DNA of 4,552 nucleotides. Source: a virus (Duplodnaviria > Heunggongvirae > Uroviricota > Caudoviricetes). The stretch's first letter is position 1. Each line of letters begins with the position of its first letter. Location of the stretch: IMG/VR virus record IMGVR_UViG_2700989159_000002. The stretch is one strand, 5' to 3'. This document shows positions 17 to 4,552 of this stretch, piece after piece. The translations under genes and the position numbers were made by a program. A model generated the notes under the pieces. That model saw nothing but the letters and a program-made list of their open reading frames with translations. It ran no database searches and was not told the origin of the DNA.

Positions 17-141
17 CCTGTTTACCTCTTTCTCAGGAAGTTTAGTCTCCAGGATTCCCGGGGCGGTTCACGTTGGGTTTTTCTGCTCATTATTAGCTCC
101 TTCTGATGCCATTCTATTTCAGGAAGGAGTGTCCGTTAAAC

Positions 142-1872
142 TCAGGCTACCTCAACTCTCTTTTCAATAGGGTCAAGGTTTTTCATCCCGCCAAGATCTT
201 CTGCCACCTGTTTGAGCATTGACCTTGTTGATGGCGCATCAATTTTTGCACCTGCAGGCATCGCCTTTTCAACATTGCGATAAAGCTGGTCGCTTCGTTT
301 CATCAGCGCAGACATTCTTCCATTGACCGTATCAATAAACTTGTCGCTCATACCAAGAGCATCTTTTGCACCGGAAACGCGATCAATTATCTCACCCGCG
401 CCCTGTGCTAGCTGCCTGATTGCTTCATTTTCCTGCACCTGTAGAGCAGAACCCGCACGGGACTTGATTGCTTGCTCAACTGCCTTGTATTGCTCGTTCC
501 CGGAAAAGTGTGAAGGGAGTAATGAATCAACATTAAGCCTTTCAGCAGACTCCAGAACTTCAGCCTGAGGATTGATATCTAGTTCATCAAGCGATGAAGC
601 GAGATTTGGCCTTTTTTGTGCTGCTACTGTGCGAACGACTTCCTCTGGGTTCTTCGTCGCAGGCGTCATTGGTACACCTTGTGCTACTCTTGCCTCTGCG
701 GCATGAACCGCAGGATTTGTTGCTGCAGCGGCATCACCGGAGAATGGTGATGTTTCTGTTGGCGCAGTGGTCGCTCTCTGTGCAGATGTTTTATTGCCAC
801 TAATTATATTTGATGCACCACGAACACCACGGGTAACGCCATTTATCAGGCCATGCGTAGCAATGCTAAGTCCGGCATTAATAGCGGCATTTTCGGCAAA
901 ATCACCCCGTTGATTCGCCGCGTCAGCGAGAGAACCAATGACCATGTTTCCAGCTACACCTGCTCCAGGAACAAGATAACCGCCTATTGACTCTCCAGCT
1001 TGCGCGTAGGGGTCTGTCGGTCTGTCTACTGGACGATAAACATCATCCAATACTTTTGGCCCCCCAAGCCCCTGACTGATTGCATTAATCAGACTTGCGC
1101 CACCCTGCAATACGTCAAATGGTATGTTTACCAGACCACGACCAGCCTGTTCTGCAATTTGCCCTGCACTTTGACCACCAGTGAGCCAATCGCCAGCTTG
1201 TTGCATCAATGATGGTTCTTCCCGTGTTGGTGCATTATTGGCCTGATTAACTGTTTGTTGCTGAACAGGTTTCGGTGCGACAGAACTTACGGGTTGAGGT
1301 GGCTGCTGACTGGCTGCCTGCTGCTCAATCTGAGCAAATGGATTATTTGGGTCTGACTGCACACCTGATGCCGATACTTGTTCGGATGACTGTACTTCCA
1401 GTTGTGCAAACGGGTTGTTAGGGTCTTGCTGAGGATGTACCTTTGCAGAGGTGGCGCGCTGTTCGACTGTTGAGTCTGTCACCGGGTCACCAGCCCATTG
1501 AGCAAAGCGATCATCAACGTAACCGCGGCCTTCAGGTCCTGGCGTATATTCACCACGCTTTGCCTTCATAACGTTGCCGGGACCGTCGTGATAAGCCTGA
1601 AGAGAGTCACGCCAGTTACCAAACTGCTGGTACATCTTTGCCAGATAGCGCGCGCCAGCGTCAGCCTGATATTCGGGGTTTTGCATTTGCTCATCGGTAT
1701 AACCCATATCACGCCATGTCCCAGGCATGACCTGAGTCAATCCTACAGCCCCGGCGGAGCTTACTGCGGCAGGGTTGTAAGAAGACTCCTTGGCACCCAG
1801 TGCAGTCATCAACCCTTCTGGCACACCGTAACGTGCGCCAGCCTGCTCTAACAAATCACGGTAATTAGCCAT
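142..1872 (-). CDS. Virion ejection/internal protein with N-terminal lytic transglycosylase (SLT) domain, at the position of P22 gp16
   Basis: 576-aa ORF, ATG at 1872..1870 directly after the upstream stop (TAAATG), TGA stop at 144..142. Residues ~20-100 carry family-1 lytic transglycosylase motifs read directly from the translation: AKESS (candidate catalytic Glu29, codon 1786..1788), GLTQVMP, AYHDGPG. This is followed by a Q/P-rich linker with a duplicated DPNNPFAQ motif, a Gly-rich hydrophobic segment and a charged helical C-terminus. The gp16 assignment is by synteny and size only. Confidence 0.85.
1330..1425. repeat. Imperfect tandem direct repeat (72-bp period) inside the SLT-protein linker, encoding two copies of DPNNPFAQ
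   Basis: Plus-strand tgagcaaatggattatttgggtc (1331..1353) and tgtgcaaacgggttgttagggtc (1403..1425) are near-identical and 72 nt apart. They encode residues 174-181 and 150-157, both DPNNPFAQ. Confidence 0.6.
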
Positions 1873-3273
1873 TTACTGCCCCAAAGATGGAAGATATCCG
1901 TAGCGATTAATGAAGTCGATTGACAGCTCGGGGTGCTGCTTCAGGTAATCTATAGAAGCCTGAGGCGCTTCCACTCGCTTGATACCGTTTTGCTGAACGT
2001 ACTTACCAACCGCCTCATTACGCTTCTGGTTGAGCGTGTTCAGGATGACGCCAGCGTTGCGACGAAAGGACTCCTCGCTCTGCGAGTTCTGCAGCGAACC
2101 AACAGCCTGGTCGAGCTTTTTGCCCTCGGCATCAGAAAGTGCGCCCATGCCTCGCATGGCCTGAACCGCTGTCAGGTATGCTTGTGATTTAAAGGTATCA
2201 AGTCGTGCCTGAGTGTCTGCAGCCTGTGAGCCTGGAACGTTGGGGATTACTCCACGTAAGCCTGTAATGCTCTTAAGTGAAGGAGAACTAACGATATCGT
2301 TCAGAGTGAACATGCTGGTTGTGAGGGTGTTGATGCCGTCTTTGTAGCCATCATTTAGCGCTTGCTGCTTCTGCTGCAACTGCTGGTTGTTGGCTGCTAT
2401 GCGGCTCTGTATTTCCTGGCGCTTCAGGTCGTTAGTTTCTGCTGATAGCATCCGGTCAAGGCGCTTATTTTCGTTGTTAATGCGGTTTGTTTCTGCGTCC
2501 AGATTAATGCGCTGCTGACCTAAATTCGCCTGGATATCTTGTCCGCGCATTGTGATTGCCTGATTCCGAGCGGCGGTTTGCGAATCCAGATCCTGACCGC
2601 GCATGGTAACCTGGCGACCCTGCATTTTATCCTGTAGGTCAAAGTATTTTTCGGGCCCGAGACTGTTCATCCCCAGGTGATCGACAAATTCGCCGAACTG
2701 CCGCGGGTTCTGTTGGTACATCTGAGCGACGTCATGAGGATTAACGCCAACACGAGCTAACTCACCGGCGTTGTTTTGCAGCCATGATTGCATTGCTTCT
2801 GGAGACGATGACGCAAGGCGTGCGCCAGCCGCTAAGGTGCCGATAGAATTACGCTGCTCTTCATCAATGAATCCCATGCCTTTACGAACGGATTCAATCT
2901 GGTCTGGATATTGAGTAGCCAACTGACGCAAAGCACCGCGATCACCAGACGCATAAGCATTAGCGTACGCCTGCTGAAATTCTTTCTGCCGCTGAGCCTG
3001 CTTTTCCTGCTGAAAAACACCCGCAATACCTGAAAGACCTTGCAAAGCAGTCAGCCCAACATTGTTAGCGCCTGAACGCTCAATATCATTGTTCTGCCTG
3101 ATAAGCTGANNNNNNNNNNNNNNNNNNNNNNNNNNNNNNNNNNNNNNNNNNNNNNNNNNNNNNNNNNNNNNNNNNNNNNNNNNNNNNNNNNNNNNNNNNN
3201 NNNNNNNNNNNNNNNNNNNNNNNNNNNNNNNNNNNNNNNNNNNNNNNNNNNNNNNNNNNNNNNNNNNNNNNNN
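1873..3273 (-). CDS. Q/N-rich coiled-coil ejection protein at the position of P22 gp20; the 5' end lies inside the assembly gap
   Basis: Continuous minus-strand reading frame from 3109 down to the TAA stop at 1875..1873, which directly abuts the ATG of the next gene. About 411 aa are supported by sequence; the start codon and roughly 55 N-terminal codons are hidden in the N-run 3110..3273. The sequence is rich in Q/N/R with coiled-coil character and MRGQD-type repeats. The ORF-track N-terminus (MGRWYW...) is read in a frame overlapping the upstream gene and is an artefact. Confidence 0.75.
   Translation of the reverse strand, partial: XXXXXXXXXXXXXXXXXXXXXXXXXXXXXXXXXXXXXXXXXXXXXXXXXXXXXXXQLIRQNNDIERSGANNVGLTALQGLSGIAGVFQQEKQAQRQKEFQQAYANAYASGDRGALRQLATQYPDQIESVRKGMGFIDEEQRNSIGTLAAGARLASSSPEAMQSWLQNNAGELARVGVNPHDVAQMYQQNPRQFGEFVDHLGMNSLGPEKYFDLQDKMQGRQVTMRGQDLDSQTAARNQAITMRGQDIQANLGQQRINLDAETNRINNENKRLDRMLSAETNDLKRQEIQSRIAANNQQLQQKQQALNDGYKDGINTLTTSMFTLNDIVSSPSLKSITGLRGVIPNVPGSQAADTQARLDTFKSQAYLTAVQAMRGMGALSDAEGKKLDQAVGSLQNSQSEESFRRNAGVILNTLNQKRNEAVGKYVQQNGIKRVEAPQASIDYLKQHPELSIDFINRYGYLPSLGQ
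3110..3273. other. Assembly gap (run of 164 N)
   Basis: Uninterrupted n characters from 3110 to 3273. Confidence 1.
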
Positions 3274-3278
3274 CCCCC

Positions 3279-3971
3279 TTAAAACAACGAGCCAAGCAAT
3301 CCGATACCAGCACCAATACCAGCGCCCCAAGGCGTTGATGTTCCCAAAAGGCTGGCAAGACCTGCACCGGCAATCGCACCAGACGTGCCACCGCTAATTG
3401 CAGTCTGAAGACTTGATGGTTTATTGGCATTAGCAGCGGCAAGAGCTGCGCTTTGCTGTGCAATGCTGCTCATGTTGTTGGCGTACGTCTGCCCGGCGTT
3501 TGCCTGACCTTGCAGCGCACCAAGCCCAACGTTTGCCAGATTGTTGTAATTGCTCATCTGATTTGATAACCAAGACTGACCGAGTGTCGGCGCGATCGTA
3601 GCCAGTTGATTGCTTGTGGCTGTCGAACCAAGTCCACCCGTCGCCTCCGCAGCAGCAAGACTCTGGTAACGCGCCTGCCCTGCAAGGTCTTTATACTGCT
3701 TAGAGTTGTAATACTGATTAAGTGCCTGCCCCTGACCTTCTAAACTGGAAAGGTTCTGAAGCTGGTTAACATACTGCTCCGCAAGAGGCGTGAACGGAGC
3801 AAGGTTTTTCATGATCGTCTGCCACTGCTGATTTTGCAGGTCTGCAGCATACTTCTGGGCTTCTGCTGCATACTTTGCGCTTTTATCAGAACTGCCACCT
3901 TTCCCGCCTTTTTCAGGGCAATAAGGTTCCTCGCCGCGCAGTTTTCTGCCCAGCTTAAATGCATATAACAT
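3279..3971 (-). CDS. Ejection protein at the position of P22 gp7, with a C-terminal glycine-zipper hydrophobic segment
   Basis: 230-aa ORF, ATG at 3971..3969 preceded by GGGAG (revcomp of 3978..3982) with a 6-nt spacer, TAA stop at 3281..3279. The size matches P22 gp7 (about 229 aa, recalled). The C-terminal ~37 residues (GGTSGAIAGAGLASLLGTSTPWGAGIGAGIGLLGSLF) are Gly/Ala/Leu-rich and membrane-insertion-like. Confidence 0.85.
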   Translation of the reverse strand: MLYAFKLGRKLRGEEPYCPEKGGKGGSSDKSAKYAAEAQKYAADLQNQQWQTIMKNLAPFTPLAEQYVNQLQNLSSLEGQGQALNQYYNSKQYKDLAGQARYQSLAAAEATGGLGSTATSNQLATIAPTLGQSWLSNQMSNYNNLANVGLGALQGQANAGQTYANNMSSIAQQSAALAAANANKPSSLQTAISGGTSGAIAGAGLASLLGTSTPWGAGIGAGIGLLGSLF

Positions 3972-3973
3972 GG

Positions 3974-4429
3974 CTATCTCCCGTGATTCAGGAAGTCGAT
4001 TAGTTCTTCGCGTGTGGCGCTGTAAAAAGTCACGTCATCCACGCCTTTGAAGTATTTCTTGATGGTTCCTACACGCTTAAGGCCAATCATTGCGCAGTAC
4101 ATCTGACCGTGTCGGAATTTGCGTGCAGCGAACGATGTTACGCACTGAACGGTGGTGTTAGTCAGAATGTATCGCCAGAACGCCAGCCCAATTTCCTTGC
4201 TGAAGCCGCGAATCTCTGGCAGGTACATGGCGTGGCAATCTAATGTCAGCGGCTGAATCTCCTGATAGTAAACAATGCCGCCAAACTGACCGTGCACGTT
4301 CACCTCAAAGTAACGGCATTCAGGTTTGTAGTCGTATCCATCACCGTTGTTGCTCCCGGCGATAATGTCAGGGTGATTTCCGACTGCTTCTATCAGGTCG
4401 ATGTTTCGCGTTGGTTTGAATGTAATCAT
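3974..4429 (-). CDS. Small conserved late protein at the position of P22 gene 14; function uncertain
   Basis: ORF with ATG at 4429..4427 (the track uses the adjacent in-frame GTG at 4432..4430), GGAG 8 nt upstream, TAG stop at 3976..3974. The start overlaps the upstream stop by 1 nt (TGATG), and the stop lies 2 nt from the next ATG. Placement is by synteny only. Confidence 0.8.
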   Translation of the reverse strand: MITFKPTRNIDLIEAVGNHPDIIAGSNNGDGYDYKPECRYFEVNVHGQFGGIVYYQEIQPLTLDCHAMYLPEIRGFSKEIGLAFWRYILTNTTVQCVTSFAARKFRHGQMYCAMIGLKRVGTIKKYFKGVDDVTFYSATREELIDFLNHGR

Positions 4430-4552
4430 CACTGCTCCGCGATTATCTTGATGGTTGTGGCAGTAAACGCCGCACCATTCGACTGAATGGTTAACGTACT
4501 GCCATTTGTGGCAAGAAAGCCGTCTTTATCCACGCTGAAGAACGTAGCTAAC
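4429..4552 (-). CDS. 3' end of an upstream late gene (C-terminal 40 aa: LATFFSVDKDGFLATNGSTLTIQSNGAAFTATTIKIIAEQ); by P22 synteny this would be the tail-needle gene 26, unconfirmed
   Basis: The only open minus-strand frame from the window edge. It ends in TGA at 4431..4429, overlapping the next ATG by 1 nt, which is the classic coupled junction. Other frames hit stops immediately. Confidence 0.55.
   Translation of the reverse strand, partial: LATFFSVDKDGFLATNGSTLTIQSNGAAFTATTIKIIAEQ

Follow-up and report, generated by a model that had tools for sequence, protein, structure and literature searches.

A probable defective P22-like prophage of Shigella flexneri with an ejection-protein cassette cut by nested IS600 and IS629 elements

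The closest described counterparts of the locus considered here are the ejection-protein genes of the P22-like (Lederbergvirus) phages P22, Sf6, and Sf101. Packaging of the ejection proteins in the virion and their ejection as a trans-envelope conduit are known for P22 and Sf6 (PMC8402733, PMC8954989). P22 injects approximately 12 molecules of gp7, 12 of gp16, and 30 of gp20, with a conduit spanning the periplasm (PMC8402733, PMC4992974); a tube is formed by gp20, or by gp12 in the case of Sf6, and gp16 has been assigned to the inner membrane (PMC8954989, PMC10883804). P22 escapes SieA through substitutions in the C-terminal regions of both gp16 and gp20, and gp20 fragments that result from C-terminal nonsense mutations do not function (PMC10883804). 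A 2022 review describes the P22-like phages as having no transglycosylase domain. We analyzed a stretch of 4,552 nucleotides (nt), hereafter the window, from the tailed-virus record IMGVR_UViG_2700989159_000002, which carries counterparts of P22 genes 14, 7, 20, and 16 on its minus strand. With a probability of roughly 0.93, the window corresponds to the distal edge of a P22-like prophage of the Shigella flexneri chromosome that is defective through truncation by insertion sequences (IS) and is carried as a clonal fossil yielding no infectious particle.

The features of the window were established from a direct reading of its letters, a listing of open reading frames (ORFs), Pfam and PHROG profile scans, BLASTP, and genome comparison. 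Across the whole window, the listing and the direct reading place four consecutive ORFs and a fragment of a fifth on the minus strand. Their order, tail needle (gene 26)-14-7-20-16, and their common orientation agree with the records of P22, Sf6, and Sf101, and the Pfam E-values of the four cassette ORFs (9e-25 to 3e-134) identify them as real genes. Four consecutive co-oriented genes had been described in an earlier note on this DNA; they are present and have Pfam support.

Window positions 155-4429 are 98.4% identical in DNA to Shigella phage Sf101 (Lederbergvirus; megablast, phage genomes), and shorter matches to other P22-like phages begin at window 2668, 1255, 974, or 860. Protein comparison by BLASTP against the annotated records of P22, Sf6, and Sf101 gave identities of 99% (Sf101), 98% (Sf6), and 93% (P22) for gp14 and of 99, 99, and 83%, respectively, for gp7. 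For gp20, the identity decreases from 98% in Sf101 to 65% in Sf6 and 43% in P22, the last value referring to the N-terminal 242 amino acids (aa) only. In both Sf6 and Sf101, the counterpart of gp7 is designated gp11 and that of gp20 gp12. The product at the gene-16 position is 99% identical to Sf101 (aa 1-573), has no Sf6 hit at E < 1e-3, and is 80% identical to P22 over 137 aa only. By sequence, the window can be assigned to the 14-7-20-16 block of a P22-like (Lederbergvirus) prophage. This is the assignment that the earlier note had made from gene sizes, order, and composition, and Pfam, BLASTP, and the DNA identity to Sf101 bear it out: the BLASTP check named in that note beforehand found homology to the gp14, gp7, gp20, and gp16 families for each product, and neither a lack of such similarity nor a non-phage flank was encountered.

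Sf101 (NC_027398 / KJ832078, gp10-gp13) has the same gene order as the window, and its annotation matches. Its gp13 is complete at 911 aa, with an mnt-like gene and the tailspike gene downstream, whereas the window gene is cut at codon 572. P22 shares the order, the orientation, and the tight junctions of the window genes. The differences from P22 concern the two largest proteins and the flank. P22 gp20 is longer (471 against 443 aa), and BLASTP finds no relationship between the C-terminal halves; P22 gp16 (609 aa) has no SLT domain and resembles the window protein by BLASTP at aa 53-189 only; and P22 gene 16 is followed by sieA, mnt/arc/ant, and gene 9, whereas here IS elements and then core genes follow. 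As for Sf6 genes 10-13, gp14, gp7, and gp20 are related and the tail-needle knob is of the same type, whereas Sf6 gp13 (665 aa), which occupies the gp16 position, has no BLASTP match at E < 1e-3 and represents a different mosaic module. The boundaries of the shorter DNA matches recur, 2668 corresponding to approximately codon 179 of gene 20 and 1255, 974, and 860 to approximately codons 206, 300, and 338 at the gene-16 position. They appear to be recurrent points of mosaic exchange inside the ejection-protein genes, and such a mosaic pattern of matches is expected for this region.

Insertion sequences and chromosomal context

Homology to Sf101 stops at window 155. Positions 71-154 (minus strand) hold the first 84 nt of IS600, with the terminal repeat TGAGGTAGCC... 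starting at 154 and running downward and the first 20 nt of orfA (ATG at 90-88), and match at 100% the 5' end of a copy whose transposase RefSeq names 'IS3-like element IS600 family' (L002). This end is cut off by a nested IS629 element, leaving IS600 as an 84-nt fragment here. The left end of IS629 (IS3 family) occupies positions 1-70 of the minus strand; its terminal inverted repeat TGAACCGCCCCGGG... starts at 70 and runs downward, and its orfA starts with the ATG at 16-14 (MTKNT...) and leaves the window at the left edge. CP001383 contains IS629 in full (1.31 kb), with 98.6% identity to an element that its depositor annotated as 'IS3 family IS629' (H139). IS629 is multicopy in E. coli chromosomes and plasmids.

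The truncated gene at the gene-16 position is a 576-aa ORF at 142-1872 on the minus strand. Its phage-derived part (155-1872) comprises codons 1-572 and two bases of codon 573, whereas the terminal repeat of IS600 contributes the final E-V-A codons and the stop codon TGA at 142-144. Over residues 1-573 of Sf101 gp13 (911 aa), the product shows 99% identity and then ends, i.e., the gene is left without its last 338 codons. Since the ORF consists of Sf101 residues 1-573 and a stop located in IS600 sequence, the length of 576 aa reflects a truncation, and the reading implied by the earlier note, that this protein is a full-length gp16 counterpart, has to be abandoned. The nearness of 576 aa to the 609 aa of P22 gp16 is a coincidence.

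The IS600/phage junction was found in two further chromosomes by an exact pattern search. Both this junction and the nesting of IS629 in IS600 are identical in CP001383, CP058589, CP102209, CP178302, and CP1825xx, and the junction is also present in a short-read contig (L012). The truncated allele occurs in 1949 blocks of the assembly index.

A search for exact matches to the 576-aa protein retrieved six complete S. flexneri chromosomes (CP001383, CP058589, CP102209, and CP182546/549/555). They agree with the window at 100% identity on both sides of a run of Ns, apart from one indel in CP001383. Each of them contains, in this order, the genes for terminase, portal, scaffold, coat, gp4, gp10, the needle, 14, 7, 20, and the truncated 16, followed by the IS elements and psiF-phoA-iraP-ddlA. 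Past the IS elements lies E. coli/Shigella core chromosome, shared by 5359 of 5426 E. coli genomes, and no Sf101 tailspike or gene-16 3' sequence was found within approximately 6-10 kb past the breakpoint. The earlier note had proposed a check of the flanks for phage genes. On the upstream side, which in the window is represented by the needle end only, portal, scaffold, coat, gp4, and gp10 precede the needle gene in the six identical chromosomes; on the downstream side, the tailspike gene was not found.

The following history is proposed for the locus. In a live phage, the cassette would form one late minus-strand transcription unit in which the end of the needle gene is followed by 14, 7, 20, and 16. 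As described in the P22 literature, gp7, gp20, and gp16 would be packed in the head near the portal, be ejected before the DNA, and form a conduit through the outer membrane, the periplasm, and the inner membrane. The Sf101-type gene-16 protein is a 911-aa mosaic whose N-terminal SLT domain would cut peptidoglycan. IS600 would have inserted after codon 572 of gene 16, and IS629 would then have inserted 84 nt into IS600. The whole distal part would subsequently have been lost, from the remainder of IS600 and the final 338 codons of gene 16 to the immI region, the tailspike gene, and attR, leaving IS629 next to the psiF-phoA region. The C-terminal regions of P22 gp16 and gp20 are functionally important (PMC10883804), and therefore the loss of 338 residues very probably abolishes the function of the protein. 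Since gene 16 is cut and the tailspike gene is absent, the cassette should be unable to yield an infectious particle and would persist as a fossil carried clonally by S. flexneri.

Several further observations concern the remnant and its surroundings in individual genomes. The large-terminase product upstream of the portal is recorded with only 351 aa (compared loci L007 and L011, positions 1-104), which may point to a truncation on the left side of the remnant as well. The distance between the truncated gene and psiF differs by approximately 2.3 kb between S. flexneri strains (12594-14852 of L007 is extra relative to L008), which suggests an additional IS insertion at the junction in some strains. 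The indel of CP001383 (S. flexneri 2002017) is an extra C (CCC to CCCC) at approximately 8083, near codon 39 of gene 7, and causes a frameshift in that strain only; either the remnant has decayed further here or the extra base is a sequencing error in a homopolymer. In CP182556/555/549/546 and CP178302, the phage remnant (12 kb) matches CP102209 with 0 differences, and just past IS629 these assemblies show 50-150 differences per kb, with many indels and with phoA, ddlA, and sbmA fragmented. Hypervariation of the chromosomal flank was considered for these sister assemblies and rejected in favor of assembly error, the differences being indel-rich and patchy. Such patchy error may explain why two of these genomes are listed as separate 'species' representatives.

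Architecture of the gene-16-position protein

The 576-aa product begins with an SLT lytic transglycosylase domain (aa 7-110, window 1543-1854), which matches the Pfam SLT model (PF01464) at E = 9e-25 with 86.9 bits, compared with a cutoff of 21.3. The motifs E29-S30, GLTQVMPGT, and AYHDGPG align with E478-S, GLMQIMPGT, and AYNAGPG of Slt70. A Q/P-rich linker contains two copies of DPNNPFAQ. The repeat in this linker can be written as DPNNPFAQ(L/I)E, its two occurrences being 24 residues apart in a Q/P/S-rich stretch at aa 150-181 (window 1330-1425). Residues 221-353 (window 814-1212) are homologous to aa 53-189 of P22 gp16, a 137-residue block, and are followed by approximately 220 aa of the variable region that have been retained. 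A 'DNA transfer protein' region behind the SLT domain is matched by phrog_770 (E = 2e-107), and the protein has a precomputed match to PF26808 (Phage_P22_gp16). Among the moderately hydrophobic, Gly-rich segments, that at approximately aa 295-319 is kept and that at approximately aa 802-823 is lost. The intact 911-aa form, as seen in Sf101 and in E. coli F1005, consists of the SLT domain, the linker, the P22-gp16-like block, and a long variable C-terminal part. Judged by its sequence, the protein is best described as an SLT-domain fusion that does not resemble P22 gp16 overall. When the PDB was searched by sequence with the full 911-aa protein, SLT-domain relatives were the only matches, and no solved structure covered the gp16-like part.

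A comparable architecture is found in T7, where gp16 (internal virion protein D), the product of the largest of three consecutive ejection-protein genes, also starts with an SLT-type domain. In BLASTP, aa 2-119 of the window protein align with residues 10-139 of T7 gp16 (28% identity; E = 1e-8) in a region that contains the catalytic E-S motif, and no similarity was detected outside the SLT domain. The profile phrog_342, which bears the product name of T7 gp16, matches over a longer span (aa 3-238, E = 8.5e-24). An extension of the similarity into the 'molecular tape' region of T7 gp16, as this span might imply, was considered and rejected, BLASTP supporting aa 2-119 only. T7 gp16 has 1318 aa, compared with 911 aa for the intact form here, and the neighboring genes are of P22 type rather than T7 type. 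The resemblance is one of domain architecture and not of family membership. By analogy with the N-terminal domain of T7 gp16, the SLT domain of the Sf101-type protein would cleave peptidoglycan as the phage penetrates.

In a tblastn search, the SLT domain was found in seven phages at 98-99% identity. Six of them have full-length records (Sf101, IME10, APC_JM3.2, Dewey, Huey, and phiKp_30), and the seventh, ECO26.1 3-1, is a 2.7-kb fragment record. A distinct group of phages of approximately 41 kb has the domain at 57-66% identity, and an SLT domain on the gp16-position protein is annotated in many E. coli prophages. On these matches, the SLT-bearing gp16 is a minority form that is already annotated in databases.

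The intact 911-aa ORF of E. coli F1005 also bears on how the truncated allele affects annotation. This ORF (4983-7718 of NZ_OY754353) is 99.7% identical in DNA to Sf101, and RefSeq annotates its part 6000-7718 as 'incomplete, missing C-terminus', the annotation ending exactly at the position of the Shigella IS600 breakpoint. A recombination breakpoint shared with F1005 at window 155 was considered and rejected, since the F1005 ORF is intact over 911 aa and only its annotation stops there. The PHROG profile phrog_21143 has exactly 576 positions, and the 576-aa protein matches it end to end. The over-represented truncated Shigella allele seems to act as an annotation template and to cause false pseudogene calls.

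Upstream genes and the masked junction

The visible part of the gene-20 homologue occupies 1873-3109 on the minus strand, from the last base of codon 32 to codon 443 and the stop. It matches Pfam Inj_translocase (P22 gp20 family) at E = 2e-58 and phrog_2534 at E = 4e-176. The product contains 20% Q+N overall and up to 33% at aa 241-280, in accordance with the Q/N-rich character noted previously. Positions 3110-3273 are a run of 164 Ns (masked or a gap) that covers the junction of genes 7 and 20. Alignment of this junction with Sf101, E. coli F1005, and S. flexneri genomes was used to determine how much of gene 20 is hidden. In the six S. flexneri chromosomes with flanks 100% identical on both sides, the 164 Ns stand for 99 nt (AATCATGGCTACTTGG...AATACGCT) and gene 20 encodes 443 aa; the Ns hide the ribosome site, most of a 9-nt spacer, the ATG of gene 20, codons 1-31, and two bases of codon 32. 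The listed ORF of 485 aa (1873-3330) passes through the Ns to a TTG inside gene 7, and the size of 470-485 aa given for gene 20 in the earlier note is an artefact of reading through them. The length of the N-run is not preserved, and any ORF or spacing figure measured across it is unreliable.

The gene-7 homologue (3279-3971, minus strand, 230 aa) matches Pfam P22_gp7 over its full length (E = 3e-134), and its product has two C-terminal GxxxGxxxG glycine zippers (aa 194-202 and 216-224), as anticipated from the Gly-zipper C-terminus described before. The gene-14 homologue (3974-4429, minus strand) encodes 151 aa from its ATG, the ORF listing having placed a GTG start one codon upstream, and matches Pfam DUF2824, the P22 gp14 family (E = 1e-52). 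With 151 and 230 aa confirmed for genes 14 and 7, the earlier size argument for the cassette is sound for these two genes; for the other two, the sizes come from the N-run (gene 20) and from the IS truncation (gene 16). The fifth ORF, at 4429-4552 on the minus strand, is the 3' end (last 40 codons and stop) of the tail-needle gene, the gene-26 homologue, which runs past the right window edge and encodes 282 aa in the identical-sequence genomes. This fragment matches positions 136-175 of the 175-position Pfam profile Phage_tail_NK (PF16532; E = 2e-21). The DNA match to Sf101 ends at 4429, whereas those to Sf6, Gally, and phiKp_30 reach 4552, and the knob of the window needle is therefore of the Sf6 type. 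The N-run, the IS elements at 1-154, and the gene-26 fragment at 4429-4552 are absent from the earlier note.

The junctions between the genes are tight. Genes 26 and 14 share 1 nt (TGATG), where the gene-14 ATG overlaps the gene-26 stop codon; genes 14 and 7 are separated by 2 nt, with GGGAGA upstream; genes 7 and 20 are separated by 9 nt, with GGGGG ahead of the ATG, as read under the Ns from the identical-flank genomes; and genes 20 and 16 abut (TAAATG), with the TAA stop of gene 20 directly preceding the ATG and GGGG upstream. No terminator-like sites were found on the gene strand of the window, and terminator-like sites overall are at chance level. Promoter-like sites in the window are no more frequent than expected by chance. 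The only one on the gene strand is located at 111-139 (minus strand), inside the IS600 end and upstream of the IS600 orfA start; by its consensus match only, it is plausibly the own promoter of IS600, now aimed into IS629. An Rfam gathering scan and a tRNA scan of the window returned no matches. Junctions of 9 nt or fewer throughout and the lack of gene-strand terminators fit a single late transcript with translational coupling.

Alternative explanations and significance

It is extremely unlikely that the cassette comes from an intact, inducible P22-like prophage or phage in which the 576-aa protein is the normal full-length gp16 equivalent. Its four ORFs are open, the protein approaches P22 gp16 in size, and the 576-position profile phrog_21143 fits it end to end. 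Nonetheless, the IS600 terminal repeat encodes the final 3-4 residues and provides the stop codon, the protein runs for 338 more residues in both Sf101 and E. coli F1005, and core genes with no tailspike gene follow the IS elements; the length of the PHROG profile is best explained by the presence of the truncated allele in the family, given its 1949 index blocks. Assembly or masking artefacts of a single record, offered as the source of both the N-run and the abrupt end of homology, have a probability close to negligible. Such an origin holds for the N-run only, which spans 164 positions against 99 nt in the identical-flank genomes, and sister assemblies of the same project are indeed patchy and error-dense just past IS629. 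The IS600/phage junction and the IS nesting, however, are identical in independent complete genomes from different projects, and the junction is found in the short-read contig L012 as well. Its recurrence in independent complete genomes makes an assembly chimera unlikely.

Domestication of the remnant, i.e., retention of the head and ejection genes or of the SLT fragment by S. flexneri for its own benefit, is very unlikely. The possible benefits include cell-wall remodeling, interference with superinfecting Sf6/Sf101-type phages, and a reservoir of recombination modules. Intact ORFs from the portal gene to gene 20, conserved SLT catalytic motifs, the occurrence of the allele in very many assemblies (the index blocks mentioned above), and an identity of 99.96-100% of the cassette among the complete genomes compared might all be taken as signs of maintenance. 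However, the S. flexneri lineages are recent clones in which near-identity over 12 kb is expected under neutral drift, gene 7 of CP001383 carries the +1 frameshift, promoter-like signals in the window do not exceed chance, and the late genes of P22 depend on a phage-encoded antiterminator that may be missing here. In the sequences compared, intact ORFs in a young clone are the only positive evidence for domestication. There is a small chance that a related and broader proposal is right as a whole, namely that an Sf101-type sub-lineage independently gained a T7-style SLT domain on its largest ejection protein and that the truncated allele fixed in S. flexneri, in which the SLT domain and the conserved N-terminal block of gp16 are left whole, might be expressed and exapted by the host. 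If true, the truncated SLT allele could serve as a peptidoglycan-remodeling enzyme or as a decoy against superinfecting Sf6/Sf101-type phages. The exaptation part of this proposal is pure speculation, whereas its architecture part is essentially shown and already annotated in databases.

Several points weigh against the interpretation of the window as the edge of a defective, IS-truncated prophage. The loci compared extend leftward as far as the terminase gene, short of the left boundary of the remnant and of any att site or integrase. The loss of function is inferred from missing parts, and the ORFs retained from the portal gene to gene 20 are intact in most genomes, in which some would see maintenance. 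The order of events (IS600, IS629, then deletion or rearrangement) is read from the nesting only, and the distal part of the prophage could instead have been relocated within the chromosome by inversion or by recombination between copies of IS629. Finally, the 99 nt assigned to the N-run come from the identical-flank genomes, and the source record may differ there.

The defective prophage remnant itself is known, having been sequenced and annotated in very many S. flexneri genomes, and a locus approximately 98% identical to a published phage carries little weight as a discovery. It illustrates how masked sequence and IS insertion can give ORF sizes that by chance imitate those of a textbook cassette. 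The over-represented truncated allele also appears to distort annotation, as seen in the pseudogene flag of F1005 and in the 576-position PHROG profile. One point of mild interest is the T7-style SLT domain on a P22-like ejection protein. As the SLT architecture is shown here for the gp16-position protein, and as this form is shared by the six phages with full-length records listed above and by many E. coli prophages, it qualifies the published statement that P22-like phages lack such a domain.

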